Below are positions 2,324 through 24,000 of a stretch of 24,000 bases of DNA, in pieces. Positions within the stretch are counted from its first letter, which is position 1, and every line of letters starts with the position of its first letter. The position numbers were made by a program, and so were the translations under genes. This DNA is from Filimonas zeae (GTDB taxonomy: Bacteria > Bacteroidota > Bacteroidia > Chitinophagales > Chitinophagaceae): positions 1,048,785 through 1,072,784 of the forward strand of contig NZ_BMIB01000004.1 in the NCBI RefSeq assembly GCF_014641615.1. Reading direction: 5' to 3'. Below the pieces are notes generated by a model, which did no database searches, was not told the origin of the DNA, and saw nothing but the letters and a program-made list of their open reading frames with translations.

Positions 2324-2336
2324 CGTTTTAAAGAAT

Positions 2337-5513: not shown

Positions 5514-5576
5514 ACAGCAATTTGTTGAAGATGGAAAAGAAGTGAACGACATCGCAATCGAAGTTGTTGAACACCT

Positions 5577-5584
5577 CAAAAGTA
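5577..5584 (-). promoter_or_regulatory. Putative Bacteroidota -7 promoter box (TACTTTTG on the minus strand) for the susC/susD operon
   Basis: Plus-strand CAAAAGTA is TAnnTTTG on the minus strand, about 64 nt upstream of the susC ATG. No convincing -33 TTG lies at the expected spacing. Confidence 0.3.
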
Positions 5585-5585
5585 G

Positions 5586-5635
5586 AGGGGGGATTTACCT
5601 GAGGGGGTGGTTTTTTAAACCAAAAAAGGGGGGAT
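5586..5635. repeat. Exact 9-bp direct repeat AGGGGGGAT (5586-5594 and 5627-5635) plus a related GAGGGGGTG (5601-5609) in the HTCS-susC intergenic region
   Basis: Read directly from the sequence. The two exact copies are 41 bp apart, and the proximal copy abuts the putative -7 box. Confidence 0.6.
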
Positions 5636-5645
5636 AAATGTCCAA

Positions 5646-8600: not shown

Positions 8601-9785
8601 GTGCTGGCGGTTCCATATAGATACGCCTCCACCGTCGGTACCAATATACAGGATTCCATCTTCGGCTTCGTATAAGGCAGATACCACTTTATCGGCCAGG
8701 GAGTTGCTGTTACCCGGCTCCTGCGTAAGCGTTTGAAAACGGCCCTTCTGCGGGTCTATAATAGCTGCGCCACTGGTAGCAGTGCCTATCCATTTGCGGC
8801 CCTGTCTGTCCACAAACAAAGCATGTAAGCCCATTTTACTTAACGCACCCGGCCCTTCGTTTCTGCTCATCAGCATGGCATGCTGCTCACCGGGCTTCCA
8901 GGCCAGCAGGTTGCCCAGCACCGTACCCATCCAGTAACGCCCTTCTTCATCTATCGAAAAAGAAACAATGCTTCCGGCCTCGGGCAGTTGCTGCTGAAAG
9001 CTGAACATAACCGAAGGCTCCGGCATAGCGGGGTTGTAGCCGTACAAGGCATAGCCATCTGCTATTACCAGGTTGCTGCCCTGCATTTCCATACAGGCGG
9101 CATTGGTATGCGAGGCGTTTACCAGTACCAGCTGCTGCGCCGCATAGCTATAGCGCGCCAGCCCGTATTTGTGAATCAGTGCCCATACGTTACCGGCAGC
9201 ATCTATACGTACCGATTTTACTGTGTAACCCGTAACCGGCCGACCTGCCTGCATTAACGTAACAGGCTGCGCTTCCAGGCCGGAGCGGGCGCATACCAGT
9301 AGCCCCATACCTTCTGTGGCCAGGAATATGTTGTTGTTTTTATCGGCCCGCACTTCTTTTACCACGGCTTTCAGTGGCTGGGTTTTATTACCGCGCAGGT
9401 ATACGGTGTTAAACCGGTTCCATAATGGCGATAGGCGGCTTACGCCCTGCCGGGTGCCAACCCATATATTATGCGCACTGTCTTCCGTAACAGCAAGAAT
9501 AATATTATGTACCAGCGATTGTGTGTCGCCCGACTTATTGCGGTACACCCGGCAGTTATAACCATCGTACCGGTTTAGTCCATCAAACGTGCCCAGCCAT
9601 ATAAACCCCTTATGATCCTGAAAAATACTGCGCACCGTGTTGTTAGATAAACCCTGCTCATTATCCAGAAACGATACCGGCGGCAAAGGTGCCGTAGCGG
9701 CTGTTACTGCATATAACAGTGCGGCCATAACGGCAACGACTTTTGGCAGAAAACGGAAAAGCTGATATGGCAGTAGCTGATACAT
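5646..9785 (-). CDS. Hybrid two-component system regulator (periplasmic beta-propeller/Y_Y_Y sensor, histidine kinase, receiver, AraC-type HTH), the typical PUL regulator
   Basis: There is a long N-terminal repeat region with recurring W.GT..GL..Y/F motifs, then a TM helix WWAYLLYGVCLIAAIYLFISY. The H-box is FFTNLSHEFRTPLTLI and the ATPase boxes are LLSNAIKFTPNGG, DSGAGIP and GFGIGL. The receiver reads LLMVDDDDD...DLIISDITMAGTDG...KPF. The C-terminal AraC HTH reads GFNDIKYFRTHFSKLFGMNPSEY. The ORF-track start at 9797 is TTG; the ATG at 9785 (MYQLLPYQ...) is the more likely start. Confidence 0.92.
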   Translation of the reverse strand: MYQLLPYQLFRFLPKVVAVMAALLYAVTAATAPLPPVSFLDNEQGLSNNTVRSIFQDHKGFIWLGTFDGLNRYDGYNCRVYRNKSGDTQSLVHNIILAVTEDSAHNIWVGTRQGVSRLSPLWNRFNTVYLRGNKTQPLKAVVKEVRADKNNNIFLATEGMGLLVCARSGLEAQPVTLMQAGRPVTGYTVKSVRIDAAGNVWALIHKYGLARYSYAAQQLVLVNASHTNAACMEMQGSNLVIADGYALYGYNPAMPEPSVMFSFQQQLPEAGSIVSFSIDEEGRYWMGTVLGNLLAWKPGEQHAMLMSRNEGPGALSKMGLHALFVDRQGRKWIGTATSGAAIIDPQKGRFQTLTQEPGNSNSLADKVVSALYEAEDGILYIGTDGGGVSIWNRQHNTFVTLSNQPGNAHSLSDNAVTAIKADNTQHIWIATFRHGLNRYTPATGKIDKYLLQNPGYNMNDRVAYSVLEDRGRRLWVSTLRQNSVFGALYSLNATTDKFEVFDASLSDLFTLYEDGNGVLWGGNLNQLVKIDRVNKKHTFYNIGYAVRSIYEDKGGNLWLGTEGGGLQLFDRMRQRVTARYSTAEGLSSDVVLTILEDGNGYLWLSTFNGLTRFDRNKHTCRNYYQADGLQSNQFHYNSGLALRNGQLAFGGIKGLNLFSPEAIRANHAMPPLQLTDVIINNIPVAEDTSFVKQLAGGSIAAITVPYSKAVLAFSYTALEYSVPGKISYAYYMEGWDRSWNQAGNMRTAAYTHLDEGSYVFRVKSTNGEGEWNAQEIAIRITVLPPWYRSWWAYLLYGVCLIAAIYLFISYKTRQGRLHYEVKVAQLQTREAQLTAQKEKEVHEKRLTFFTNLSHEFRTPLTLIIDPVKEMIEQEKEPALKESLHMVFRNARRLLSLVDQLLLFRKAEAEADTLHLTMLNAVELCSEVYYSFIQQARIKKLDYRFECAEQEIALCADREKLEIIVFNLLSNAIKFTPNGGGVVLKLEATDTQVMIQVNDSGAGIPEGTGDKLFNRFYQVKDSATAGKTGFGIGLFLVKHFTGLHHGQVSYQSQLNGGTTFTLALLKGTAHFGEQEISAATETTAPAALPEPEAPEIAADKGRELTTLITEKPTLLMVDDDDDLRSYVSKVFSNEFTVLQAVNAQEGLALAQQYLPDLIISDITMAGTDGVDLCKQVKENTSLSHIPVILLTASTASETRLRGIEAGADDYITKPFEKELLKARVVSLLKKRNSLQQYFYNEITLQQNDGKVSVEYREFLDKCIRIVEDHLDDETFSIKTLSTEMGMSRSSLYRKVNSVSGQSIIGFIRFIRLRKAAELMITTENNVTEIAAVTGFNDIKYFRTHFSKLFGMNPSEYIQRFRKPFHNNLQLNKNIRKPDQG

Positions 9786-9836
9786 GGTAACCGGCAAATA
9801 ATAGTGAAGTATGGCTGCGGTAAATTACAGGTTTTA

Positions 9837-11105
9837 CTACAATTCCTTTACCCTATATAAACATGCGCCAAACAAAAAGATAATAAAGTAACATACCACC
9901 GGCAGGTAATAGGCTTTTGCCACATCGTGATTGGCTACCAGCCCCATTACAAACGGGAAAAAGGCGCCACCTACCACGCCCATGGAAATAAAGGAAGAAG
10001 CCTGTTGCGTATGTGCACCCAGGCTTTTTAAACCCAGGCTGAAGATGGTAGGAAACATAATGCTGAAGAAGAAATTTATCATCAGCAGGGCGCTGAACGA
10101 AAACCAGCCCCAGCCCTGCGCCACCATGCAACACATAACCATGCTGCCAAAAGCAAAAGCAGCCAGCATTTTATGGGGCGCCACAAACTTCATCAGCGAT
10201 GTACCTGCTATACGCCCCAGGGCCATCATAGCCATAAACACAATCATATAGTTGGCGGCACTGGCATCGGTAAAGCCCATTACATCATGCCCGTAGTTGA
10301 TAAAGAACCCCCAGGTACCGGCCTGTGCGGCTACGTTAAAAAACTGCGCTATCACCGCCCATACAAAATGCCGGTACTGAAACAGCTTTTTAGCCGGCGC
10401 AGCAGCCTGCGCGGCGGCGGCATTGCCAGCGGTTGCGGCTTTCTGTGCGGTCACCTCTTTATCACCAGCTTCTTCCGCACCGTGTGCGCTGGTAACCGCG
10501 GGTACTTTTACAAAAGCAAAAGCCACTACCACTGCCAGCAGCACTATGCCAATGCCGGTGTATAATGTTTTAACGGAAGCCAGATCGCCCGCAGCGCCGC
10601 TGCCAGCCAGTAACAGACTACTGCCCAGTGCGGGACCAATCATGGTACCCAGGGCGTTGAACGATTGGGAAAAATTGATACGCCGGTCGCTGGTACCCTG
10701 GTGGCCCAGGGCTGCCACAAACGGATGGGCCACTGTTTCCAGTGTAGCCATGCCGCAGCCCAGCACAAACAAAGCCAGGCGGAAAAACGGAAAGGATACC
10801 CTGTCTGCCGCTGGCACAAACATAAACGCACCCAGCGCAAACAACAGCAGGCCCAGTATTACACCGTTTTTATAGCCAAAACGTTTCATAAACAGCCCGG
10901 CTGGTATACTCATAAAAAAGTACGCCCCAAACACGGAAAACTGAATAAGGCCGGATTGCGATTTTGACAAATGCAGCACGTTCTGAAAGTGTTTATTCAG
11001 CACATCGCTGATGGAATGCGCCACACCCCATAACAAAAACAGGGAGGTAACAAACAGGAAGGTGACAATAAATTTCTTCTCTGTAAAAGCAGGCTTTTCT
11101 ATCAT
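9837..11105 (-). CDS. MFS sugar:H+ symporter, FucP / glucose-galactose transporter-like
   Basis: 422 aa, about 12 hydrophobic helices and an ATG start. The N-terminal segment FLFVTSLFLLWGVAHSISDVLNKHFQ...SQSGLIQFSVFGAYFFMSIPAG resembles the FucP subfamily. There is an Ala-rich central cytoplasmic loop. Confidence 0.8.
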   Translation of the reverse strand: MIEKPAFTEKKFIVTFLFVTSLFLLWGVAHSISDVLNKHFQNVLHLSKSQSGLIQFSVFGAYFFMSIPAGLFMKRFGYKNGVILGLLLFALGAFMFVPAADRVSFPFFRLALFVLGCGMATLETVAHPFVAALGHQGTSDRRINFSQSFNALGTMIGPALGSSLLLAGSGAAGDLASVKTLYTGIGIVLLAVVVAFAFVKVPAVTSAHGAEEAGDKEVTAQKAATAGNAAAAQAAAPAKKLFQYRHFVWAVIAQFFNVAAQAGTWGFFINYGHDVMGFTDASAANYMIVFMAMMALGRIAGTSLMKFVAPHKMLAAFAFGSMVMCCMVAQGWGWFSFSALLMINFFFSIMFPTIFSLGLKSLGAHTQQASSFISMGVVGGAFFPFVMGLVANHDVAKAYYLPVVCYFIIFLFGACLYRVKEL

Positions 11106-11134
11106 ATCAATTTTTTAACTGAGGCGCTTGCCGG

Positions 11135-12322
11135 TTAGAATAAGGGTTTACCCTGCTGCAACTTTTGTAAACGCAGCAACGCTTCCAGGTAGTAGTAGTC
11201 GGCATACACTATCGAAGCATCTATCTCACTGCCATTCGGTTTATTCCCCGTACTGTGTAATAAAAGTGCACAGTTGCGTTTACCAGACTGCCAGCGTTTG
11301 GTAGATAGTTCCGCCAGCATAGCAGTGGCTTTCTGCCGGTAATGCTGGCCTGTGGCCGAATCTGTTACCAGGGTACTCAGCTCCAGCAAGGCAGATGCTG
11401 TTACGGCTGCGGCCGAGGCATCGCGCGGAGCATTGGGTATAGCAACGTCATCAAAATCCCAGTAAGGAATCTGTTCATCACCCAGCCTTTGTAAGTACAC
11501 ATTGGCTACCTGCTGCGCAAAGGCCAGGTATTCCGGCTTGCGGGTTTCGCGGTAGCAAAGTGTGTAGCCGTATATAGCCCAGGATTGGCCGCGCGCCCAC
11601 ATACTGCTATCGGCATAACCCTGATGCGTTTGTTTGCGCAGCACCTTACCGGTTACTGTATCGTATACCACTACATGATACGCGGAGTAATCTGGCCTGA
11701 AATGGTGCTGCATAGTAGTATTGGCGTGCTGTACGGCTATATTGTAACAATGAGGGCTTCCATTTTTTGCGGCCCAGAACAGCAGTTCCAGGTTAATCAT
11801 GTTATCGATAATAGTGTTGTGCCCGCCCAGCATTTGCACATTGCGCGGCCAGGATAAAATGGTACCCACCTGCGGATTGTACAACGTAGCCAATGTATCG
11901 GCCGCGGCCAGCAGTATGCGTTTATAGCTGGTATCGCCCGTAAGGCGCAGGCCATTGCCCATGCTGCAATACAACTGAAAACCAATATCATGATCGAAGG
12001 CTTTGTTGTAAGCCAATGGCGTAAGGGTACGGCTGAAACTATCTGCTTTGTTACGCCAGGTGGTATCTCTGGTGTATTCGTATACATACCAGAGCAGGCC
12101 GGACCAGAAGCCGGAAGTCCAATCCTTATAATCCACCAGGCTCCAGCGGCTGGCACCGGCAGCAATACTGCGGGGAATACTGTCGTACCCATGCAGCTGA
12201 CCGGCAGCAACCGTAACCTGCTGCACACTATAATTCAAGGCCGGTTCAGAAGAAAACTTTTTTGCCATGGTACACGCCTGCAAACAGAGGATACCCAGCA
12301 AAGCAATCGTTGTTATGCGCAT
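11135..12322 (-). CDS. Glycoside hydrolase family 88 (unsaturated glucuronyl/uronyl hydrolase)
   Basis: 395 aa with lipoprotein-type signal MRITTIALLGILCLQAC. The motifs DYKDWTSGFWSGLLWYVYEYT and FDHDIGFQ are characteristic of GH88. Its ATG overlaps the upstream lyase stop (TGATG at 12320-12324), which suggests translational coupling. Confidence 0.85.
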   Translation of the reverse strand: MRITTIALLGILCLQACTMAKKFSSEPALNYSVQQVTVAAGQLHGYDSIPRSIAAGASRWSLVDYKDWTSGFWSGLLWYVYEYTRDTTWRNKADSFSRTLTPLAYNKAFDHDIGFQLYCSMGNGLRLTGDTSYKRILLAAADTLATLYNPQVGTILSWPRNVQMLGGHNTIIDNMINLELLFWAAKNGSPHCYNIAVQHANTTMQHHFRPDYSAYHVVVYDTVTGKVLRKQTHQGYADSSMWARGQSWAIYGYTLCYRETRKPEYLAFAQQVANVYLQRLGDEQIPYWDFDDVAIPNAPRDASAAAVTASALLELSTLVTDSATGQHYRQKATAMLAELSTKRWQSGKRNCALLLHSTGNKPNGSEIDASIVYADYYYLEALLRLQKLQQGKPLF

Positions 12323-15198
12323 CAGAATTGTATTTTAGAATAAGTGACTGCAGGCAGCGTAAAAGCCACGCGTATACCACCATTGGTGCGCAGGGTTTTA
12401 CCGGTGTACTCACGGGTGGTATTGTCTGCTGTTAGTTTTAAGCGGTTACCGGTTACGCTGTTTAATGGCAGGGTTAATACCACGGGCTTATCTGCGGCAA
12501 AATACCAGCCATCGCTTTGTTTGCATAAGGCGGCGGCGGTATTGTTTTGTTTTGCGGTAATGCTGTAGGCACCGCTGCCTATGCTGCTGCCGCTGCCCAT
12601 AAACAGGTACTGCAATTGATTACCCTGCTCGCTTATTACACCATATACGCCATTGCTCCAGCGTTGCTGATAACTGGCGGTGGCGGTACTGTCTGCCCCG
12701 CAGAACACCCATTGGGTGCTGCCGTTGCGGGTGTTAATAGTTAAGCCTGTTACTGCGACGCTGCTGGTTTGCGGTGTAAAGCTTTGGATGGCGGTAATAT
12801 CTTTAGGTATGCCTGCTGTAGCAGGTTCCAGTACTACGGTAAAAGGTTTGTTCCAGGCCGCTCCTGTTTGCCGGGCTATAATAGTGGGTAATGGCAGGGT
12901 AGCTACGCTCTGCGGAAGCCCCATACGATCAATGGCTTTAGAGGGCGGCGCTTTTACGGCAAATACTTCCCGGTTGGGTTCTCCCTTCATCCACATATGC
13001 ATCTGTAATTCCGGGCCATTGGGCATCGTCAATTGAAACTGTGCCTGAATATCCTTATCCGTAACTACCGATTTTTTATCCCAGAAATAATCATAGGCCG
13101 ATAAGTGACCACCAGCAAACGTTAGCCGCTCTGTGGGTTGCAGGTTCAGCGGTGCACCTGCACTATCCAGTACGGTTAGCTGCTGGCCCATGCTGTGATA
13201 GAAATAATCGTGCATTTTATCTTTTCCATCCTGCCGGGCAGAGCGGAACACATCTATGTAATACCCGGTTGTATCGCTGGTTCTGACAATGCCGAGTAAC
13301 CTGTTCTGCCGGGCCTGTGTTTCCGGTTCCAGAAAGGCCACACTGGCAAAACTTACCAGCGGAAAAAAGCCTGCTTTTACACCGGAGGCGGGATAACTGT
13401 GCAGCAACTCAAAACCATGATTGCTTTTCATAACCGGATAGGCAGAGATACCATCTACCGCTACGGTATTATGCGCCGGAAACTGCGAATAGTACTCGCC
13501 ATAGTCTGGCTGAAAATAACTGGTGCCTATACCTGCTTCGGGTGCCAGCACCATGCCCTTACCAAACAGTTCCATAGAAATACCGCCTGCGTGCATGTGA
13601 TTGCCTTTAGAGCCGGATAGTGCTGCCATTAACCCGTTTACCGGATCAAAGCCGTTGCGCAAGGCCAGGTAGCTTACTTTGGGCGCGCTGAATACCGGAG
13701 TAACATAGGCTGTAATACTGCCGGGTTGTGTGGTATCTGTTGTGGCAGTTACAGGTTCTTCTACCAACAGTGTAGCGGCTATGCCTTCTTTCTTTTCCGG
13801 AGTTGCTGCTTCGCCTGTGTGCCGGTTAAATGCTTCCAGTGTTTTGAGGTAGCGGCTAAAGGCTGCTATCTGTTGCGGCTTGCGGTGCAGCTGTGCATTG
13901 GCTAGCAACTGCCGGGCCGGGGTAAGGGAAAGCCTGCCATAATGCGAATCGCCAAAGGCAGAGAAAAAACCATTGGGAAACAGGTACTGCGCTGCGGCAG
14001 GTACTGCTTTTTCCAGCACGGGCATATCCGGCAGCAGATCGTGCTGAAACTGTTTATCAAAACGCTGTACCACACCGGTAAAATCAGCCAGCACATTCAG
14101 AGAATAGCCGGGGCATTCGTTCCAGATACCGGTGGTGGAATCGTAGCCTTGCTGTAGCAGCTTATACAGGCTCCACTGGCGTTCAGAATCGGTATTTAAG
14201 ATGTTGCTGATATAGTACTGGCGGCCCTTACCATCGGGGTAAGCGCGGTTATCTTCCAGCACTGCGGCAATATTCAGCACGTTGCGTGCTTCTATCAGGT
14301 TCCAGTTATTAAAGGCTACACCGTGGTTAATCTGCACCTCTGCCCACTTTTTAAACACAGCGGTGTACACCTCTATTTGCCGGGGTGACCGCTGTTGCAG
14401 GTATTGGTACAGCAGATCGTAAATACCGGTGAGGCTGGTGAGCAGTGCTGCCTCCTGTATTACCTCAAAGGTGGCCAGCCCGGCAATAGTTTCGTGGTGG
14501 CCGTGGGTAAGGTCATGCGGCGTTTCGCGGTAGTGCATACCGGTCATATAGGTATCAAACAGCCCGAATGCAAAGCGGGCGTATTTGTCATCGTCTGTCA
14601 GGCGGTACAGCCAGGCAGCGGTATGCGCAAAGCCCATCAGCTGGGTGTTAACAGATTCAATGGCACGACCGGTTTTGGCCACTTCCACCCACTCCATGGG
14701 CGCACCGGGTTTGGAGCGGTTTACCAGGTAAACACCCCGCGGGTCGTCTGCATACGGCAGCAGATCTTCCGGTTTGGGCGCCCCGTACGGGGTAATATGG
14801 TCGCGTGCACCAGGAAAGCGTACAGTAGGCACCGGGGCTTCGCCTTCGGCATGGTCAAAAACACCCCCTTTTATATACACCTCTGTATGCCGGGTTTTCC
14901 AGTACATCTGCAGGCGGCTGAGCATCCAGCTACTGTCTGCCTGGCAGCGAGTTACGTAATTATCTATGCTTTCCCGCATGCGGCTTACCGTTTTGCGGGC
15001 GGTTTCGTTTTGCAGTGTCCACGCTTTTAGCCGGGGAAGTTGTGTGTTGGTCACCTCCAGACGGGGGTGTTGCTGCGAAAAGTCTGCTGGTAATTGTATC
15101 GGCTGCGCCGTGGCAACTGCCAGCAGGCTACCCAGCGGCAGCAATACAGTTTTAACCGAAAAGGCAAGCAGCCGGAAAAGCAGAATAGTCTGATTCAT
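12322..15198 (-). CDS. Heparinase II/III-like polysaccharide lyase (large, 958 aa, secreted)
   Basis: The signal peptide is MNQTILLFRLLAFSVKTVLLPLGSLLAVATAQP. An N-terminal helical (toroid-like) half is followed by the segment GNHMHAGGISMELFGKGMVLAPEAGIGTSYFQPDYGEYYSQFPAHNTVAVDG, typical of the Heparinase II/III-like domain. It is paired with GH88. The PL family cannot be assigned by eye. Confidence 0.65.
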   Translation of the reverse strand: MNQTILLFRLLAFSVKTVLLPLGSLLAVATAQPIQLPADFSQQHPRLEVTNTQLPRLKAWTLQNETARKTVSRMRESIDNYVTRCQADSSWMLSRLQMYWKTRHTEVYIKGGVFDHAEGEAPVPTVRFPGARDHITPYGAPKPEDLLPYADDPRGVYLVNRSKPGAPMEWVEVAKTGRAIESVNTQLMGFAHTAAWLYRLTDDDKYARFAFGLFDTYMTGMHYRETPHDLTHGHHETIAGLATFEVIQEAALLTSLTGIYDLLYQYLQQRSPRQIEVYTAVFKKWAEVQINHGVAFNNWNLIEARNVLNIAAVLEDNRAYPDGKGRQYYISNILNTDSERQWSLYKLLQQGYDSTTGIWNECPGYSLNVLADFTGVVQRFDKQFQHDLLPDMPVLEKAVPAAAQYLFPNGFFSAFGDSHYGRLSLTPARQLLANAQLHRKPQQIAAFSRYLKTLEAFNRHTGEAATPEKKEGIAATLLVEEPVTATTDTTQPGSITAYVTPVFSAPKVSYLALRNGFDPVNGLMAALSGSKGNHMHAGGISMELFGKGMVLAPEAGIGTSYFQPDYGEYYSQFPAHNTVAVDGISAYPVMKSNHGFELLHSYPASGVKAGFFPLVSFASVAFLEPETQARQNRLLGIVRTSDTTGYYIDVFRSARQDGKDKMHDYFYHSMGQQLTVLDSAGAPLNLQPTERLTFAGGHLSAYDYFWDKKSVVTDKDIQAQFQLTMPNGPELQMHMWMKGEPNREVFAVKAPPSKAIDRMGLPQSVATLPLPTIIARQTGAAWNKPFTVVLEPATAGIPKDITAIQSFTPQTSSVAVTGLTINTRNGSTQWVFCGADSTATASYQQRWSNGVYGVISEQGNQLQYLFMGSGSSIGSGAYSITAKQNNTAAALCKQSDGWYFAADKPVVLTLPLNSVTGNRLKLTADNTTREYTGKTLRTNGGIRVAFTLPAVTYSKIQF

Positions 15199-17302: not shown

Positions 17303-17740
17303 ATGGCAGACGTACACAATAAGGAAACGCGCAGCTATAACATGAGCCAGATTAAGGGTAAGGATACCAAACCCGAAATACTGGTGCGCCGTTTTTTGCA
17401 TGCGCGGGGGTTCCGGTTCCGGCTGCACGATAAATCGCTGCCTGGCAAGCCAGATCTGGTGCTGCCTAAATACAAAACGGTTGTTTTTATTCATGGCTGC
17501 TTCTGGCATGGGCATGCCCACTGCAAGTACTATGTGGTACCCAAAACACGTACAGAATGGTGGCTGAATAAAATTAACACCAACATTACCAACGATCAGA
17601 AAGCAGAAACGCTGCTGGCAGCAATGGGGTGGAAAATAATTACCATCTGGGAATGTGAGCTGAAGAAGGCGGTACTGGATGATACGCTGGCCAGACTTGT
17701 TTTGAGTATATTAGGCAGTAAGCAATTACAAAACAAATAA
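17303..17740 (+). CDS. vsr: Very-short-patch repair endonuclease (Vsr family)
   Basis: 145 aa. The sequence ETRSYNMSQIKGKDTKPEILVRRFLHARGFRFRLH...LPGKPDLVLPKYKTVVFIHGCFWHGHAHC...WKIITIWECELK matches the hallmark Vsr motifs: the PGKPD catalytic Asp region, FxHGCFWHxH and WEC. Confidence 0.9.
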   Translation: MADVHNKETRSYNMSQIKGKDTKPEILVRRFLHARGFRFRLHDKSLPGKPDLVLPKYKTVVFIHGCFWHGHAHCKYYVVPKTRTEWWLNKINTNITNDQKAETLLAAMGWKIITIWECELKKAVLDDTLARLVLSILGSKQLQNK

Positions 17741-17791: not shown

Positions 17792-18238
17792 TTATCCGGT
17801 AGCTGCCATGCCCTGCATTTCGCCGGAAGCCTCATCCTGTATCTTCCCTCTGCTACGTGCAATACTGATAAGATCAGCATTGAGACTAATCAGCTTTTTG
17901 TACTCGTCCGGCTTCTCCATAACGGCATCAAACAGGTGCAGATTCTCATGAATCAGCGGATCCTGCTCCACATTTGCGCCACTCAGCACCACATACAGGA
18001 AAGAGGGCTCAGCACACCTTAGCCGTATGCGACGTAAAACATCCAGCGAGTTCATACCGGGGAGATAGAAGTCGGCAATAATCATATCCGGACAAGGGTT
18101 TTCCGCCAGAAACGACAGTAAATCAAGGCCAGAAGAACAGCTGGCTACTATGTTAAAATGACCAGGATCCAGCGCTTCCTGCAACAACATCCTGTCATCT
18201 GCATCATCGTCTAATATTATCACGTTCACTTTTTTCAT
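17792..18238 (-). CDS. Single-domain response regulator (receiver only)
   Basis: 148 aa. It has the acidic pocket ILDDDADD, phospho-acceptor context MIIADFYLPGMNS, VVLSG and EKPD (the conserved Lys). There is no output domain. Confidence 0.85.
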   Translation of the reverse strand: MKKVNVIILDDDADDRMLLQEALDPGHFNIVASCSSGLDLLSFLAENPCPDMIIADFYLPGMNSLDVLRRIRLRCAEPSFLYVVLSGANVEQDPLIHENLHLFDAVMEKPDEYKKLISLNADLISIARSRGKIQDEASGEMQGMAATG

Positions 18239-18420: not shown

Positions 18421-18822
18421 TTAGCGGAATCTGAGTACCAGATGCGGATAACTACTCTCAGCCAGATCGCCGAGAATAAGCCTGCCCAGTAAAGCCTTTA
18501 AGCCATCATACGAGTCGGGCTTTTCAAATAGATACGTAGGGCGAAAGTTGTCTGCCACTTTCAGATTGGCATTAGCCGACATGGTAATAAATGGGATATC
18601 AGGCTTTGTTCTGGATACTTCCAGCCACAGCTCATGCGCATTCATAACGGGCATGTTGTAATCGGATATAATGATATCCGGCGGAGTATCCAGCATTTCC
18701 AGAATAGCCGCGTGACCACTTTCCACTACATGCACCACAATCTCCGGATGAATTTCATCCACTGCGGTTTTAAAAAAGAACTGGTCGTCTTTGTCATCCT
18801 CCACTAACATGATTCTTATCAT
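18421..18822 (-). CDS. Single-domain response regulator (receiver only)
   Basis: It has LVEDDKDD, DIIISDYNMPVMNAHE, ITMSA and FEKPD. The ORF-track start at 18825 is GTG. The ATG at 18822 sits 4 nt downstream of a strong AGGAGG Shine-Dalgarno (plus strand 18827-18832 CCTCCT). Confidence 0.85.
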   Translation of the reverse strand: MIRIMLVEDDKDDQFFFKTAVDEIHPEIVVHVVESGHAAILEMLDTPPDIIISDYNMPVMNAHELWLEVSRTKPDIPFITMSANANLKVADNFRPTYLFEKPDSYDGLKALLGRLILGDLAESSYPHLVLRFR

Positions 18823-19025
18823 CACACCTCCTTTTTGTTATGAAAGAATACAGCCGGCATAATAGAGGTTAGCGGGCCTTTTTCAACCCGGTATTAGCAA
18901 ATACGATGCTTAAAACGAATCATCCCTTACTTATTAAGATTTCTTTAGCGGTTGCCCCGGATTGTTAAAAAAACATGCATAACAAAGCTGCGCCCCCTAA
19001 TGTTCGTTTTAACGGCTATAAAATA

Positions 19026-19056
19026 AGAGGGCACATCATTATATGATGCACCCTCT
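19026..19056. other. Imperfect hairpin AGAGGGCACATCAT-TAT-ATGATGCACCCTCT flanked by A/T-rich runs
   Basis: Read directly from the sequence. The 14-nt arms have two central mismatches. It lies in the 346-bp gap between the two-TM gene and the response regulator, and its function is unknown. Confidence 0.35.
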
Positions 19057-19133: not shown

Positions 19134-19163
19134 AAAACCGCCGCCTTACGGGGCAGCGGTTTT
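19134..19163 (-). terminator. Rho-independent terminator closing the 20409-19172 operon
   Basis: The minus-strand RNA reads AAAACCGCUGCC-CCGUAA-GGCGGCGGUUUU. This is a 9-bp GC-rich stem whose single irregular pair is a U-G wobble on the minus strand (a C-A mismatch on the plus strand). It is followed by a U-run and starts 9 nt after the stop codon. Confidence 0.8.
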
Positions 19164-19171
19164 ATTATTGG

Positions 19172-19399
19172 TTACCCTTTTACAGTAATCTGACTAATAG
19201 CCGCGGCCACACTGCCTGCCACCGCCAGGTAACCCGCAGCTGTTATTACACCTGCCGGCAACACCACCGGCGAGGCAATAATTACAGCACTGGCAGCGGT
19301 TAACGCCAGCCCCATATTGCGCAGCTTTTCAAAGAAGGGTGGGGTTTCCTGTTTTGCTCTTTGTTTAAGACTCAACTGATCTATTTGTTTCTGTGTCAT
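19172..19399 (-). CDS. Small two-TM membrane protein (75 aa), function unknown
   Basis: A polar N-terminus MTQKQIDQLSLKQRAKQETPPFFEKLRN is followed by two Ala/Gly-rich hydrophobic helices (GLALTAASAVIIASPVVL and VITAAGYLAVAGSVAAAISQI). It starts 6 bp after the upstream gene stop and is followed by the terminator. Confidence 0.65.
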   Translation of the reverse strand: MTQKQIDQLSLKQRAKQETPPFFEKLRNMGLALTAASAVIIASPVVLPAGVITAAGYLAVAGSVAAAISQITVKG

Positions 19400-19405
19400 G
19401 GTTTG

Positions 19406-19843
19406 TTAATTATAGTTTTTAAATAATGGGGTGATGCCTACAGGCAGTGACTCAATCTGCAGCCACACTTCCTGTTCCAGCTCAAAGGCAGGTTGCAGCA
19501 ACCGCATCAGCTTACTCATGGCCCTTCTGCTACTTTCGCCCTCACCCTTACCTGTTAAAGCGCTTACGGGCGCAATACAGCCTTTTAATTCGCGGGCAGC
19601 ATTGTTGGCAGGGTGTATCAGAATCAACTCGCGGCCAGGCACATCCTGTAACCACAGGTGATTACTGAACTTCGGGCTCTGCCTTTGCAGCAGCCGGTAG
19701 CGACCTTCGGGCACGCACGATGCGTTGGTGCGGTTATCCAGCCAGGGCAGTTCAATGGTATAGCAAACAATATCGCCATGCATTCTGAGTATACCATTGG
19801 TGCCGCGCGGATAATACATACGCTGTAGTTGTAGTGTTATCAT
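19406..19843 (-). CDS. DUF5675-like protein (145 aa); possible Cys/His peptidoglycan-acting enzyme
   Basis: The sequence YYPRGTNGILRMHGDIVCYTIELPWLDNRTNASCVPEGRYRLLQR...VPGRELILIHPANNAARELKGCIAPV matches my memory of the DUF5675 family found in Bacteroidota and phages. That match is unverified. Its ATG overlaps the upstream stop (ATGA at 19840-19843). Confidence 0.7.
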   Translation of the reverse strand: MITLQLQRMYYPRGTNGILRMHGDIVCYTIELPWLDNRTNASCVPEGRYRLLQRQSPKFSNHLWLQDVPGRELILIHPANNAARELKGCIAPVSALTGKGEGESSRRAMSKLMRLLQPAFELEQEVWLQIESLPVGITPLFKNYN

Positions 19844-20409
19844 AACTGCACCAGTCTTTCCAGATTGGCTTCGTTACCGGGTCGGTCTTTAGCCAGCGCC
19901 CTTACTATGCAGCCATCCGGATTGTTATTTACTACTGTTGCCGTATACACCCAATCGCGCCCATTCTCCTGCATTACCGCCATGCCTTTTTCAATCAGCA
20001 CATCCTGCTCCGTAAAAATGGACACCTCTACGGATACCACCTTATAGCGATCTACCGTATCTACCGTTACTGTACTGCCTACCAGGCCCGTGTATTGCGT
20101 TACCACCACATCAAAAATCTGTGGCGCCTTCCACACATCGGCCATGGCCAGGTTAAACGCACTCTGGCCGGGTTTGGTCATTTCCTCATACATGGCTTTT
20201 GCGGCAGGTATGCTGAGGATGGACTTTGCGTATTGAACGGCTTCTCTGAAGCGTTCGCGAACGGATATCTGAAGTGGGGTAGGTGGCACGGATGATTTAT
20301 CCGGCTTGCGGGAAACGATGGTTTTACCCGCCCTTTTGGTGAACACTAACAGATCGCCCACCAGACCACTTAAACCGAAGGTGACTATATTATTTTTTGA
20401 CTCTGCCAT
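19840..20409 (-). CDS. Hypothetical protein (189 aa), first gene of the operon
   Basis: ATG start with an A-rich SD-less leader typical of Bacteroidota. The N-terminus is FGLSGLVGDLLVFTKRAGKTIVSRKPDKSSVPPTPLQISVRERFREA, and the C-terminal half looks beta-rich. No function is recognisable. Confidence 0.65.
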   Translation of the reverse strand: MAESKNNIVTFGLSGLVGDLLVFTKRAGKTIVSRKPDKSSVPPTPLQISVRERFREAVQYAKSILSIPAAKAMYEEMTKPGQSAFNLAMADVWKAPQIFDVVVTQYTGLVGSTVTVDTVDRYKVVSVEVSIFTEQDVLIEKGMAVMQENGRDWVYTATVVNNNPDGCIVRALAKDRPGNEANLERLVQL

Positions 20410-20579
20410 TGTAATTCTTTTTACACGTTATTCAATTTGTGTTTCCATTTGCCACCACCGCTATCCGGGTAAAGCCTTGTTGGGGACGCTTCTCCCAACT
20501 CAGCTTTCAGCGTCGGCCCCGGTTACCGGCGGTTGACATAGCAATGATACTATTGGGGAGAGGGTGTTTTGAACGCGAA

Positions 20580-20642
20580 GTAGGCAAACGACAGTTTGGA
20601 GTATGCAAACGACAGTTTCGTGTAGGCAAACGACATGAGACA
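20580..20642. repeat. Three tandem 21-bp direct repeats: candidate LytTR-regulator binding array
   Basis: The copies are GTAGGCAAACGACAGTTTGGA (20580-20600), GTATGCAAACGACAGTTTCGT (20601-20621) and GTAGGCAAACGACATGAGACA (20622-20642). The 14-nt core GTAKGCAAACGACA is present in all three. The array lies 171 bp upstream of the operon ATG and 223 bp downstream of the LytTR gene. Confidence 0.85.
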
Positions 20643-20648
20643 GGCCTC

Positions 20649-20701
20649 AAACCCTTATGCAGACTGCGTTCTATGTCAGTTACGGCCTGCAGCAAGGGTT
20701 T
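20649..20701. other. Long imperfect hairpin/palindrome (AAACCCTT-A-TGCAG-ACTG...CAGT...CTGCA-GC-AAGGGTTT)
   Basis: Three nested complementary blocks were read directly: 20649-56 with 20694-701, 20658-62 with 20687-91, and 20663-66 with 20677-80. Confidence 0.45.
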
Positions 20702-20705
20702 CAGA

Positions 20706-20727
20706 GCATACCTGCCGCATACCGCCA
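20706..20727. repeat. Tandem 11-bp repeat GCATACC(T)GCC x2
   Basis: GCATACC occurs at 20706-20712 and 20717-20723, read directly from the sequence. Confidence 0.6.
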
Positions 20728-20765
20728 CGCTGTCACCCCGGAAAAAATTCTATAGCAACTGCCCA

Positions 20766-20820
20766 GGCGAAGGGGAAGCGAACCCGTGGCGAACCCACAC
20801 CGAAGGAATGGTGAAGGCAA
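20766..20820. repeat. Five tandem degenerate 11-bp repeats with an invariant GAA core
   Basis: The units are GGCGAAGGGGA, AGCGAACCCGT, GGCGAACCCAC, ACCGAAGGAAT and GGTGAAGGCAA. GAA occupies the same register every 11 bp, starting at 20769, 20780, 20791, 20802 and 20813. Confidence 0.7.
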
Positions 20821-20864
20821 AACCGACCCGCAAAATGGCAGACATACATTAAATAAATATACGT

Positions 20865-21182
20865 TTACTCACCCAGGAAGGTGATGCGCTTATAAAATGC
20901 CTCGCGGTATGTTCTTCCGATAGGCACCTCGCGACTGCCGAGGTTTATAAGCTCCGCTGTAAAGAATACAATATGATCAAGAGAAACTACATAGGCAGTA
21001 TGCACGCGGCAAAACTGAACATACCCTACCGTCTGATGCAGTTGTGTAAGCGGTTTTCGAATGAGAATACTTTCGGTAGTAGTTATAACAGTGGAGTATA
21101 TTTTCCCTCCCTCTATTAGCATAATATTACTTTGTTCAACGCATACATAGCGTGGGTACTGCGGTAGGTAGAGGCGCGGCAT
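20865..21182 (-). CDS. Stand-alone LytTR-family DNA-binding protein (105 aa, no receiver domain)
   Basis: VCVEQSNIMLIEGGKIYSTVITTTESILIRKPLTQLHQTVGYVQFCRVHTAYVVSLDHIVFF...LGSREVPIGRTYREAFYKRI follows the LytTR domain pattern (I..IE...., r.sL..le..L....F.RvHrsyiVnl..I, vPvsR.y). The protein is essentially the domain alone. Confidence 0.8.
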   Translation of the reverse strand: MPRLYLPQYPRYVCVEQSNIMLIEGGKIYSTVITTTESILIRKPLTQLHQTVGYVQFCRVHTAYVVSLDHIVFFTAELINLGSREVPIGRTYREAFYKRITFLGE

Positions 21183-21227
21183 GATTCCAGGTTTTAGATT
21201 TATATAATGAATAACTAAGCAGACGGA

Positions 21228-22217
21228 TCAGGCAAACAGCTTGCGCCGTCTCAATGCAGATGGCGCACAGCCAAAACGGCGTTTATAATACCTGAGCAGG
21301 CAGGTTTCACTCATCCCTATTTCACAGGCACAGCATTTAACCGAAGCACCTTTACGCCTCAGATAGTCACAGGCTTTCAACAACTGCTGCTCTATTATAT
21401 ACTGCTTTACTGTTTGGTTAGTAATACTAAAAAAAGCAGTATATATAGTAAAATCGCTTACACCAAAATGTTCAGCCAGCACGCCAGTAGTAAGGTGTTT
21501 ATGAAAGTGCTTATGAATATAAGTCTGTATTTCTGTAGCCAGTGGCACCATGCCGTTATTCATTTTCCTGCTGCGCATTAACTGCCGCAAGCGTAGTACA
21601 TATCCATTTAACAGGCTATCTGCCAGGGAAAGTGCCCGTACACAACTACCGGGGTTATGGTAATCAATAGCAATTAACCGACTCAGCAATGCATCTCTCC
21701 CCGGCAAGCCCGAAACTGTAAGCTGCATTACAGAACGCCTTTCGCCGGACGACACACAGGCACTGAAATGAGCCAATTGAGCGTTTACCGTAGCCAGGTG
21801 TTGCACCTGCTGCTGCGTTAAAGTAATACAGGCAAACTGATACATGCCAGGGGCTAATCGCATGTAGTGTTCCGTTGTGGCCGGGCTATGCGCCAGCAAA
21901 CACTCCCCCTCGTGAAATTTGTGCTGCCCTACCCCTTCTGTATATACCAGTGCATTACCCTTCATCACCAACCACAGTGCAGTAATAGCTTCCGGCACCG
22001 ACACTGTTAACAACTGATGCTCTTTTACATAAATCTGGTACAGATGAAAGGTAACAGCACCTATTGATGCAGACTGGATCATTACAGCGCCTTCTTTCCA
22101 TACAATACTACGGACTGCTGCACCTTTTAGCTGGTGCGTTGCATAGGCATACTGTTGTGGCAGCTGATTAACAATAGCAACATCTTCTTCGGGTTTACCG
22201 ATAGGCAGAAATGTCAT
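21228..22217 (-). CDS. AraC-family transcriptional regulator with an uncharacterised N-terminal (cupin-like?) sensor domain
   Basis: The C-terminal HTH reads IQTYIHKHFHKHLTTGVLAEHFGVSDFTIYTAFFSITNQTVKQYIIEQQLLKACDYLRRKGASVKCCACEIGMSETCLLRYYKRRFGCAPSALRR. The ORF-track start at 22256 is TTG; the ATG at 22217 (MTFLPIGKPEED...) is more likely. Confidence 0.8.
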   Translation of the reverse strand: MTFLPIGKPEEDVAIVNQLPQQYAYATHQLKGAAVRSIVWKEGAVMIQSASIGAVTFHLYQIYVKEHQLLTVSVPEAITALWLVMKGNALVYTEGVGQHKFHEGECLLAHSPATTEHYMRLAPGMYQFACITLTQQQVQHLATVNAQLAHFSACVSSGERRSVMQLTVSGLPGRDALLSRLIAIDYHNPGSCVRALSLADSLLNGYVLRLRQLMRSRKMNNGMVPLATEIQTYIHKHFHKHLTTGVLAEHFGVSDFTIYTAFFSITNQTVKQYIIEQQLLKACDYLRRKGASVKCCACEIGMSETCLLRYYKRRFGCAPSALRRRKLFA

Positions 22218-22588
22218 TGGGTACGTTTTTATGGTTGGGCAATTGTTCTGAAACAAATATCATTATATAACAATGATAGAAGTCAAATATTTGCCACCTA
22301 AAACGGAGAAACAACGGTTCTTATTGAAAAGAAACGTTAAAATATCCACAGGTATTTACCAACGGGTTGGCAGGCTTCTTATATAACAATATCATTTAAC
22401 TGAAAAAGCAACACATATGCAGAAGTGAAAATATTAATGTCTTAAAACAGGCAGTACTGCAAATATCGTTAGGGATGAGGCTGAAATGCCCTGCCAGTGC
22501 TGTTACAGCTTTTGCATACCTTTTATAGGGGGCGGAAATGCGTACTTCACATCAACTGTTGATTCAGAAATATTTTTTCTGAGCCGTG

Positions 22589-22909
22589 TTATGCTTTTGC
22601 TGATTGCGCCTTACGCCTGGTTTTATCAGAGCCTCTTTTACGTTCGCACGAGCCTTCAACCGGCTCAAACCCCTGCATCTTTTTATCCAGTGCATTCAGC
22701 AGTCGCAAAAACTCTTCTATACGCTCATACATAAAAAGCCTGTTACTATTTTCCTGTCCGCTACTACTATCAGCACTGTGATATACCGAAGCCGTGTAGA
22801 ACTGCCACAGCAATTTTCTGCACTGCTTATAAGGGTAGTTTAAAAAGAAAAACCGCACCTCCAGACACAGCTCTTCCAGTAATTCATCGGGTATGTTTTG
22901 AATGTTCAT
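22589..22909 (-). CDS. Hypothetical small protein (106 aa)
   Basis: ATG start and a helical, charged composition (MNIQNIPDELLEELCLEV...YERIEEFLRLLNALDKKMQ) with a basic tail. It is co-directional with the upstream 106-aa gene and 44 bp from it. A weak AT-rich hairpin TCAGAAA-TATTT-TTTCTGA (22564-22582) follows the stop. Overlapping plus-strand ORFs look less protein-like. Confidence 0.5.
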   Translation of the reverse strand: MNIQNIPDELLEELCLEVRFFFLNYPYKQCRKLLWQFYTASVYHSADSSSGQENSNRLFMYERIEEFLRLLNALDKKMQGFEPVEGSCERKRGSDKTRRKAQSAKA

Positions 22910-22953
22910 AGCGGATTACGAAGCGGTATTTAACGGATTTAAACGATACATAG

Positions 22954-23274
22954 TTAGCAAACGGGCTGATTATGGCTGCTCACCCCCTCACTGGCAGCAG
23001 GTGCCTTGTGTTTACGATAGACTACTTCACCAGATTCCAGCGCTTTCAAAACAAACGCATCGCCGCTGGTGCCTAGCGGATTATCTAAAACAGGCTTATA
23101 TATTATGCACCTGGCTTTGAAATCTGGCTTTGCCAGATTTTGGATTACTTTGATAATTTCCGCCCCTGGATAGTCAGCACCCTCATCAGGAACAATAATA
23201 AGGCTTAAAGAGAGTGTTTGCTGCTCCTGAATTTGCCAGCTGCATCCGCTATTATAGCTTGCTATGCTTGCCAT
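22954..23274 (-). CDS. Hypothetical small protein (106 aa); the C-terminal half is reminiscent of a minimal nucleotidyltransferase fold lacking catalytic Asp residues
   Basis: ATG start. LSLSLIIVPDEG...ARCIIYKPVLDN...FVLKALESGEVVYRK resembles the hhDxDhhIIV...vDvivyt...f...al.eG.vlY layout of MNT-type proteins, but the G-S and D-x-D positions are substituted. This is a memory-based resemblance only. Confidence 0.45.
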   Translation of the reverse strand: MASIASYNSGCSWQIQEQQTLSLSLIIVPDEGADYPGAEIIKVIQNLAKPDFKARCIIYKPVLDNPLGTSGDAFVLKALESGEVVYRKHKAPAASEGVSSHNQPVC

Positions 23275-23494
23275 TTTCCAGTTATAACAGACAGTTTTGG
23301 AGATTGGGAAATACGCTACGAGCCTGTCGATAAGTAATCGCAGATCGAAATTTTGCTATGGGGTGAGGTGTTTTAATATGGTATGCATACAATTGAATGT
23401 TTTTATCCTGTCGAGGAGATCCCCTTTTTACAGGCATTTTGTAATAAAAACCGATTGTAAGACTACCGCGCGCAGTGAGGAAAGCATTTAATAA

Positions 23495-23848
23495 AAAAGA
23501 CGCGGGCTAGTCCTTAACTTTACAAATAAAAAATTGTCCGTTGTACAACTTCCACATCATGGTTCTTATAAAAACTACCACGCCCCATTCTGGGAGCAAA
23601 TATTAAAAGCGGATAAACGGCATGCGATCGCATCAGCAGGCGTAAATGCTAAATATAAGCATCCACATTTTGAAGTTCTCAAAACCTTCCACGAAAACGG
23701 ATATAACATACACTGCACCAGCATCGCTCATGGTTCGCAAGAGTTTTTAGAACATATAAAGAGAACTGCTGCTATTAGTGGCAAGCTAGATACATTTAGC
23801 ACTCTTATAAATTCCTACACACCAGGAGACAAAGTTTTCCAAGCTTAA
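23495..23848 (+). pseudogene. C-terminal remnant of an MBL-fold hydrolase of the ComEC/Rec2-related type
   Basis: VVQLPHHGSYKNYHAPFWEQILKADKRHAIASAGVNAKYKHPHFEVLKTFHENGYNIHCTS matches the ...vLkvpHHGS....fl....p..aiiS.g..N.ygHP...vl..l...g..v..T C-terminal signature. The N-terminal metal-binding motifs (HxHxDH) are missing. The reading frame is preceded by in-frame TAATAA (23489-23494), and the ORF-track start at 23534 is TTG. Confidence 0.6.
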
Positions 23849-24000
23849 AAACCATGAAAAGATTAATAGTAAATTAGTTAGTAAAAAGTGCCTTTAAGGT
23901 TTACAAACCTTACTACACCCAATTCAAGAAAATTCACCTTTGATTACGACAGCTCTCAGGCTATACAAAATAAAATAGAACTTCTTAGCTATTACTTACC

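Follow-up and report, generated by a model that had tools for sequence, protein, structure and literature searches.

What could a compact three-gene operon around a DUF5675 gene do on the chromosome of the soil bacterium Filimonas zeae, behind two regulator genes and outside any prophage? The locus lies in a stretch of 24,000 nt of contig NZ_BMIB01000004.1 (the window, whose positions are used throughout), where five open reading frames (ORFs) follow each other on the minus strand, all in the same direction. In transcription order these are an AraC/XylS-type regulator gene (21228-22217), a gene for a receiver-less LytTR protein (20865-21182), a 455-bp gap which separates this unit from the operon (20410-20864), and then the genes for proteins of 189 aa (19840-20409), 145 aa (the DUF5675 protein, 19406-19843) and 75 aa (19172-19399). 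The 189-aa and 145-aa genes overlap by ATGA, the gap from the 145-aa to the 75-aa gene is 6 nt, and a hairpin with a 12-bp stem followed by UUUUCAU (19134-19163; -19.8 kcal/mol, z -4.7) closes the operon as an intrinsic terminator. Direct reading confirmed this layout, including the overlap and the 6-nt gap, as a first-pass annotation of the same sequence had given it. The terminator, which that annotation called strand-specific, is not, because the hairpin folds on the plus strand too, again with a U-rich tail.

We read the locus as a chromosomal, non-prophage cassette that derives from a phage-type holin/endolysin pair, is activated by the LytTR protein and serves controlled lysis or release. 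As a whole, this reading has in our view about an even chance of being right; we are more confident of the enzyme assignment and of the status as a conserved cassette outside phages, and less so of the physiological outcome. The first-pass annotation had proposed a gated cassette acting on the cell envelope. This is partly supported: the non-prophage status, the predicted L,D-peptidase-like fold and the recurrence of LytTR speak for it, whereas the conserved core is a pair and not the trio of genes, and LytTR is not a universal gate.

The DUF5675 protein and its membrane partner

To our knowledge, no activity has been assigned to DUF5675. The 145-aa protein matches the family profile (PF18925, E = 9.2e-30) with 103.3 bits vs a gathering cut-off of 26.7, residues 6-117 covering profile positions 2-113 of 114. 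Among 40 homologues H77, G88 and C89 are invariant, within the motif HPANxAxxELxGCIAP. The His-Cys spacing is eleven residues; in the YkuD/Tlde1 L,D-transpeptidase-like superfamily the canonical spacing is 14-17. Neither a hydrophobic N-terminus (the maximum 17-residue hydropathy is 0.89) nor a signal peptide is present.

A structural model was obtained with AlphaFold 2 (AF2) at a predicted local distance difference test (pLDDT) of 89. Its top three PDB matches, the only meaningful ones, are all entries of Salmonella Tlde1a, with probabilities of 0.95-0.99, E-values of 0.014-0.06 and TM-scores of 0.48-0.49. The Pfam model Tlde1_dom gave a weak hit below threshold (0.074), and a profile search of PDB sequences with DUF5675 found no match. 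Furthermore, a 2026 preprint, in the part accessible to us, classes DUF5675 as 'C82-like'. The family is present in 156 phage records. It occurs in Microviridae of 5 kb, in one of which it is among the few genes without a core virion or replication annotation; in Vibrio phages it adjoins proteins with transmembrane helices, and many of the 206 DUF5675 loci in IMG/VR are microvirus-sized. The Tlde1a fold match, the Tlde1 hit, the C82-like label and the occurrence in phages and microviruses together make a lysis enzyme acting on peptidoglycan stems the best reading of this protein, and we predict it to be an endolysin-like Cys/His peptidoglycan L,D-peptidase. The structure check called for by the first-pass annotation thus points to a peptidoglycan L,D-peptidase-like fold, encoded next to a holin-like protein with two transmembrane segments.

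This partner, the 75-aa protein, shows two hydrophobic segments in its hydropathy profile (about residues 29-47 and 50-70), which may form a hairpin, and has no match in Pfam or NCBIfam and no significant one in PHROGs. Its gene is under strong constraint (dN/dS 0.03-0.05). Gene neighbourhoods were compared in three samples: the 80 closest metagenomic DUF5675 loci, 80 viral DUF5675 loci, and 34 genome loci with a gene of the 189-aa type. In almost all of about 90 Bacteroidota loci a homologue of the 75-aa protein, 40-66% identical, is encoded directly 3' of DUF5675. The same order is found in Flavobacterium and Flavisolibacter (loci L039 and L040 of our survey), in other genomes of Chitinophagaceae or Bacteroidota (L006, L009, L013, L017-19), in L015, L022 and L157, and, with few exceptions, in the 80 closest metagenomic loci. 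By tblastn, none of the 80 viral loci has a 75-aa homologue. Therefore, the conserved core consists of DUF5675 and the 75-aa protein, a pair specific to cells, not phages. A signal-less, predicted muralytic enzyme and a small transmembrane protein whose genes are 6 nt apart are what is expected of a lysis cassette, in which the 75-aa protein would act as a holin-like partner of DUF5675. Relatives of the pair are widespread yet undescribed in Bacteroidota.

The first gene, in contrast to this pair, varies, and the three-gene unit of the first-pass annotation has to be narrowed accordingly. About 70 of the 80 metagenomic loci carry an unrelated 251-aa gene in front of the core pair and a gene for a transmembrane protein of about 58 aa behind it; a divergent 67-aa HTH-like gene usually lies upstream. 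In Pelobium the order is a 190-aa gene, a 208-aa paralogue, DUF5675, a gene for a 95-aa transmembrane/coiled-coil protein and the 75-aa gene. The four-gene cassette of the 251-aa type (251 aa, DUF5675, ~75-aa and ~58-aa transmembrane proteins) is very common in Bacteroidota (L129-L206; for instance L129:3731-5807 and L139:3763-5807), its flanks vary (HipAB, DUF6943, ECF sigma/FecR, RteC-like genes), and its partner families were found neither in Pfam nor in PHROGs. A case of cassette decay was seen in a metagenome-assembled genome (MAG) of the Chitinophagaceae, in which DUF5675 is cut to 82 aa (L013:10591-10839) between intact 188-aa and 69-aa genes.

The view that the operon is not simply a prophage lysis block was borne out. 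No phage structural genes and no tRNA genes were found in the window, of which only 1.7 kb reaches past the AraC gene, and the genes flanking the cassette differ from locus to locus in the metagenomic survey. The 75-aa family is absent from INPHARED as well as from the viral loci. Relatives of the 189-aa and 251-aa proteins were found neither in INPHARED (tblastn) nor in IMG/VR (pattern scan) nor in the 80 viral DUF5675 loci (tblastn), and on these results a phage origin of the partner genes was dropped. All genes of the locus are under purifying selection, with dN/dS of 0.03-0.23 at synonymous sites which are largely saturated (dS 0.4-2.6).

The regulators and the control region

The AraC/XylS-type protein has 329 aa when read from ATG (HTH_18, 1.2e-12) and 342 aa from an alternative TTG at 22256. 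Its gene (dN/dS 0.15-0.23) stops 45 bp upstream of the LytTR gene (dN/dS ~0.1), and because of this short gap the two are probably co-transcribed. The 105-aa LytTR protein (PF04397, 1.5e-9, residues 12-100) has no further Pfam domain; it is a soluble LytTR-only factor as known from the LytTR regulatory systems (LRS).

The gap in front of the operon had been described as dense with repeats. This was overstated: there is a single repeat family, three direct 21-bp units at 20579-20641 on the minus strand, which are a putative activator binding site (Tandem Repeats Finder: period 21, 2.7 copies, 88% matches). The box cores read CTGTCGTTTGC at 20584-20594 and 20605-20615 and ATGTCGTTTGC at 20626-20636. 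With at most one mismatch, CTGTCGTTTGC occurs three times in the gap and four times in the window vs 0.48 expected, and no copy lies upstream of the AraC-LytTR unit. An 11-bp box and a 10-bp spacer are repeated three times; then follow 11 bp, a weak -33 element (TCAA, 20569-20572), 19 bp and a -7 box, TATCATTG, at 20542-20549, so that the putative promoter spans 20542-20572, where a sigma-70-like match TTCAAA/TATCAT is found as well. Box spacing, position and promoter geometry match published LytTR sites and the promoters of the Bacteroides 'LRS-like' systems (PMC6193735).

These elements are also conserved. The three CTGTCGTTT boxes persist despite saturated synonymous divergence, the three TGTCGTTT cores keep their 21-bp register in L046 and L208 while the spacers diverge, and at the promoter five genomes share an unchanged TAGTATCATTG; in the most distant relatives the upstream half of the gap can no longer be aligned. 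The contig of a near-identical relative (DUF5675 97% identical) stops inside the 21-bp array (L038:1-24), which suggests that these repeats break short-read assemblies.

How far does the LytTR link extend? The block of AraC, LytTR, gap, operon and two receiver genes is syntenic in three metagenomic relatives (L044, L045 and L046), whose 189-aa proteins are 89%, 86% and 71% identical to that of F. zeae and in which LytTR orthologues hold the same position. L157 carries a 29%-identical LytTR-only gene, followed immediately by a paralogue and then by a 188-aa gene, DUF5675 and the gene for the 75-aa protein, and the 293-bp upstream region of L157 contains one CTGTCGTTTG box. A membrane-anchored LytTR protein is encoded upstream of the cassette in Pelobium (L015 and L022; Pfam 1e-10 and 7e-13), and L022 has 20-bp phased repeats of its own ahead of a TAGGTTTG -7 box. 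Thus, a receiver-less or membrane-anchored LytTR gene precedes cassettes of the 189-aa type in three separate lineages. This survey was done with local HMMs; a word-indexed search gave only two proteins and was uninformative. Loci without LytTR carry HTH_17, ECF sigma/FecR, RteC-like or 67-aa HTH-like neighbours. The LytTR link as first proposed therefore stands in so far as it recurs in three lineages with conserved phased boxes, although most relatives use other regulators. The first-pass annotation knew of no LytTR-only regulators in Bacteroidota. 'LRS-like' systems have been published from Bacteroides (PMC6193735), but those carry membrane segments. L157 also has about eight 11-bp phased repeats (TAACCCCGACG, TTTCCTTGAGG, TTACAAATAGG and similar ones; L157:4290-4385) just 5' of the 188-aa gene, which come after a T-run hairpin holding the single CTGTCGTTTG box.

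Between promoter and operon, a leader of about 90 nt (20450-20538, minus strand) is nearly invariant in five genomes, and it is still about 90% identical to L046, where dS exceeds 1. It is predicted to fold into a branched hairpin (-49 kcal/mol, z -3.7) within a 5' untranslated region (UTR) of ~125 nt, the transcript being predicted to start near 20535. Among the 37 pairs of the consensus structure there are one compensatory change and several that are wobble-compatible; the divergent copies are too few to prove an RNA structure, and L207 extends no more than 67 nt upstream of the gene. Rfam gave no match at E up to 10. A leader peptide was considered and rejected, since the 10-codon ORF loses its stop in L046 and L208 and the conservation has no codon pattern. 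We regard the leader as a candidate for a new cis-regulatory RNA or an extended operator.

Two further elements recur upstream of genes of the 189-aa type. In four lineages GTCAA-N(3-14)-CCGGTA is located 50-125 nt upstream of the start codon (L004:9930-9951, L015:5739-5758, L022:9934-9954, L044:3417-3430 and orthologous positions, in the window ~20520-20533). These upstream sites make up 8 of the 17 matches in 1.9 Mb, and the motif may be a shared operator. An element of about 50 nt, GCAGGTATATCG..CTGATACTAGT.AGG..GGGCCCCCTGC, lies ~100-200 nt upstream of the gene in L006, L009, L010, L011, L013, L014 and L017-L019; in some loci a T-rich stretch comes after it, followed by three to five locus-specific 11-bp tandem repeats. 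Compensatory change is seen in 5 of its 13 predicted pairs. In six L006-type loci with this hairpin element, Rfam at the gathering threshold found only tRNAs.

Proposed function and its alternatives

The 189-aa protein has no Pfam match. A profile search returned 4,257 cluster representatives at E <= 1e-3, almost all of about 187 aa; it was used for the family size because a word-indexed search gave 28 matches only. The AF2 model (pLDDT 81) consists of a three-helix segment and a C-terminal bacterial Ig-like sandwich, while the N-terminal ~26 residues are conserved, yet not confidently structured. Big_6 matches were obtained for 9 of 25 family members, and fold searches with the model returned generic Ig matches only. 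The protein has no signal peptide, and its gene evolves with dN/dS of 0.10-0.18. It is a candidate cargo, targeting subunit or regulator. The N-terminus of the 251-aa family reads MAxQKGIIKLxGTIGDITF. A signal common to both families (MA..K...G..G...F) was considered; the profile-profile probability is 7% and different segments were aligned, hence homology is not claimed.

From these parts a mechanism can be sketched. The AraC-type and LytTR-only genes would be transcribed together, as the 45-bp gap suggests. The LytTR protein would bind the three CTGTCGTTTGC boxes 21 bp apart and activate the promoter with the -7 box TATCATTG, an assumption based on geometry, conservation and the published behaviour of LytTR proteins. 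The structured leader at the start of the transcript would probably add a second checkpoint. The three tightly packed genes would then be expressed, probably with translational coupling, and the two-segment hairpin of the 75-aa protein may insert in a holin-like manner and give the signal-less DUF5675 protein access to the sacculus, where a Cys/His L,D-peptidase site, judged by the fold, would cut or edit peptide stems. The outcome may be lysis of a subpopulation or a local opening of the wall, whereby the signal-less 189-aa protein with its Ig domain would be released or delivered as cargo or targeting subunit, in the manner of type 10 secretion or a regulated lysis cassette. The set of genes is compatible with type 10 secretion: a holin-like protein and an enzyme outside a prophage, together with a signal-less candidate cargo. 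One may extend this to all relatives, with DUF5675 and the 75-aa protein as the core of a Bacteroidota-wide, non-viral export or lysis apparatus, an analogue of type 10 secretion unrecognised so far, the 189-aa or 251-aa protein as cargo or targeting subunit and, in some lineages, a gate made of a minimal LytTR protein and a new leader RNA. We put this forward as a tentative idea, possible but rather doubtful.

Several observations speak against the proposed mechanism. The structural match to Tlde1a is modest (TM-score 0.48, E 0.014), and the accessible part of the preprint that classes DUF5675 reports no enzymology for the family. The 75-aa protein fits no known holin family and ends in ...SQITVKG, whereas holins typically have a charged C-terminal tail; the window contains no spanin-like gene. 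The gene of the 189-aa type stands alone, without DUF5675, in 23 of 34 genome loci, and as the family so often occurs without DUF5675, a role as cargo or partner is conjecture. The scanned loci with such stand-alone genes have unrelated neighbours (a class A PBP, a GH20 enzyme, a helicase, RHS proteins). Four other lineages of the 189-aa type have no LytTR gene within 10 kb, and at only one of about 70 loci of the 251-aa type does a LytTR gene lie within 5 kb. LytTR is thus a recurrent, not a universal regulator of the cassette, one of several that are interchangeable. Finally, AraC/XylS activators such as AraC at I1-I2 and XylS bind direct repeats of ~21 bp abutting the -35 element, and it is just as plausible that the AraC-type protein reads the 21-bp direct repeats here.

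This last point leads to the most serious alternative, in which the AraC-type regulator, not LytTR, reads the three boxes, and LytTR acts elsewhere or on the leader/operator region. The synteny of the AraC gene in all four loci of the Filimonas clade agrees with it. The L157 and Pelobium loci do not, since in them LytTR is present while no AraC gene adjoins the cassette, and L157 nevertheless carries a CTGTCGTTTG box upstream. Furthermore, the AraC genes beside stand-alone genes of the 189-aa type in Chitinophaga share only the HTH with the AraC gene of the window and are otherwise unrelated, which led us to reject a conserved AraC partner. Taken together, we consider LytTR not reading the boxes unlikely.

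Another interpretation is an antibacterial effector-immunity module with DUF5675 as Tlde1-like toxin, the 75-aa protein as immunity factor and the 189-aa protein as adaptor. However, no type VI secretion system (T6SS), PAAR, VgrG, Hcp or other delivery genes are present in the window, and no such cluster recurs in the surveyed flanks, which were not domain-scanned. Microviruses and tailed phages often carry DUF5675, and a role in lysis would suit them. Unlike fast-evolving immunity proteins, the 75-aa protein is 40-66% identical across families at a dN/dS of 0.03-0.05, and it lacks a periplasmic domain. Such a module appears quite improbable to us.

Lysis could also be the purpose itself, in an abortive-infection-like suicide switch or a stress-triggered autolysis switch in which the 189-aa protein would be sensor or regulator rather than cargo. 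The same parts would serve, several genomes place the cassette among defence-type or toxin-antitoxin genes, and LytTR regulators elsewhere gate lysis and bacteriocin programmes. A known defence system was considered and rejected, as no PADLOC model matches any cassette protein, and we judge such a switch very unlikely. Least probable of all is a decaying lysis remnant of a phage or mobile element, without present function and beside the regulators by chance, for although the lower GC from 16 kb onward, the nearby Vsr gene and ComEC-like fragment and the truncated DUF5675 gene in L013 would fit, there is purifying selection on all three genes, which are intact, across dS of up to about 2, promoter boxes and leader are conserved, and about 90 loci whose flanks differ retain the core pair.

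The LytTR-activated lysis or release cassette, which we prefer, would offer a compact and testable case with one enzyme, a membrane partner, a candidate cargo, a minimal regulator and a three-box operator. The locus represents hundreds of comparable cassettes in Bacteroidota from soil, freshwater and marine habitats. Studying it could reveal what three large families do (DUF5675, the 75-aa family and the 189-aa family, the last without a Pfam entry), and a new lysin chemistry directed at Gram-negative walls could come out of it. Receiver-less LytTR signalling, for which Firmicutes have been the main source, would be extended to a defined target operon in Bacteroidota, if the predicted gate holds, and the invariant leader may, independently of this, be a new regulatory RNA. 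We know of no holin/endolysin-based secretion or programmed-lysis system described in Bacteroidota.

Surroundings and comparison with known systems

Downstream of the operon, about 80 nt 3' of its terminator and before the next gene, a second terminator-like hairpin (19026-19056, minus strand) has a 14-bp stem, a U-rich tail and, with -20.9 kcal/mol, a more stable fold than the first. Two stand-alone receiver (REC) genes follow on the minus strand (18421-18825 and 17792-18238; PF00072, ~2e-10 each), which share synteny with the cassette in the Filimonas clade (L038, L044-L046). A functional link to the cassette is possible, and these receivers could belong to the receiver-less LytTR protein as split partners. 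Just downstream lies a Vsr endonuclease gene on the plus strand (17303-17740), syntenic in L038, L044 and L045. Neither a cognate kinase gene for the receivers nor a Dcm methylase gene is found in the window.

From 16 kb onward the GC content is 0.39-0.49 vs ~0.50. The stretch 22257-24000, at 0.39-0.41, is not syntenic in L044-L046; its minus strand has two unannotated ORFs of 106 aa (22589-22909 and 22954-23274), and its plus strand encodes a fragment of 104 aa (23534-23848) that is similar to the C-terminal part of a ComEC/MBL-fold protein. At the other end of the window, 479-15198 (minus strand) is a polysaccharide-utilisation locus unrelated to the cassette. It encodes SusD, a SusC-like TonB-dependent receptor, a hybrid two-component regulator with AraC output, an MFS transporter, GH88 and a heparinase/ulvan-lyase-like enzyme. 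In an Ilyomonas MAG, at least four copies of a 36-nt repeat, GATGTAAAAGAACTAAAGTTGAAAGCAAATCACAAC, with unique spacers of ~30 nt lie upstream of a stand-alone gene of the 189-aa type and resemble a CRISPR array (L008:9600-9830).

Compared with known systems, the cassette is neither a phage lysis cassette, since phage context and a known holin family are both lacking, nor a canonical LRS, since it has no membrane inhibitor and no autoregulatory boxes, and it is likewise neither an lrgAB/cid system nor a T6SS effector pair. The last of these, Tlde1/Tldi1 of Salmonella Typhimurium (PDB 7UO3, 7UO8, 7UMA), provides the closest solved fold and shares the Cys/His L,D-carboxy/transpeptidase-type chemistry that is predicted here. 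The Filimonas locus differs in that it has no T6SS context, a DUF5675 protein of 145 vs ~174 residues with a shorter His-Cys spacing, and downstream a gene for a membrane hairpin instead of a periplasmic immunity protein. With LytSR/CidR and lrgAB/cidAB of Staphylococcus and Bacillus it would share the tie between a regulator of the LytTR family and holin-like control of murein hydrolases, an analogy from which the first-pass annotation set out, whereas Pfam finds no LrgA/LrgB or CidA/CidB domains in the five Filimonas proteins, and there is neither a receiver domain nor a LytS-type kinase.

The phage modules with DUF5675, as in Vibrio siphophages (e.g. vB_VhaS_R21Y), the crAss-like cr50_1 and many Microviridae, have an enzyme of the same family (33-40% identity), also without signal peptide, and in tailed phages often next to transmembrane proteins. 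In contrast to the Filimonas locus, which has no phage genes around it, they lack homologues of the 75-aa, 189-aa and 251-aa proteins.

Closer parallels exist for the regulation. With the LRS, i.e. HdrRM and BrsRM of Streptococcus mutans and the 'LRS-like' systems of Bacteroides (PMC6193735), the locus shares a receiver-less LytTR regulator, direct repeats of 9-11 bp with a period of ~21-22 bp that end ~10-11 bp upstream of the promoter, and the Bacteroides promoter format of -33, 19 bp and a TAnnTTTG-like -7 box. It differs from them in that the AraC-LytTR unit encodes no transmembrane protein and thus no co-transcribed membrane inhibitor, the boxes lie upstream of the target operon and not of the regulator's own gene, there are three of them vs two, and an AraC-type gene is paired with LytTR.

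With regard to the effector genes, the comparison is with type 10 secretion system (T10SS) and lysis cassettes: ChiWXYZ of Serratia, the chitinase and typhoid-toxin T10SS of Salmonella, and the lysis cassette of Yersinia entomophaga (PMC10109510, PMC10847048, PMC10101115, PMC9527704). Where those use a muramidase or an L-Ala-D-Glu endopeptidase, Filimonas has a DUF5675 protein, predicted to be L,D-peptidase-like; its membrane partner falls into none of the known holin families, a spanin gene is lacking, the host is one of the Bacteroidota and the cargo role of the 189-aa protein is a candidate one. Judged by the genes, both have the same outline: a phage-derived holin and peptidoglycan hydrolase, in Filimonas predicted ones, at a non-prophage locus, adjoined by signal-less proteins and a dedicated transcription factor.

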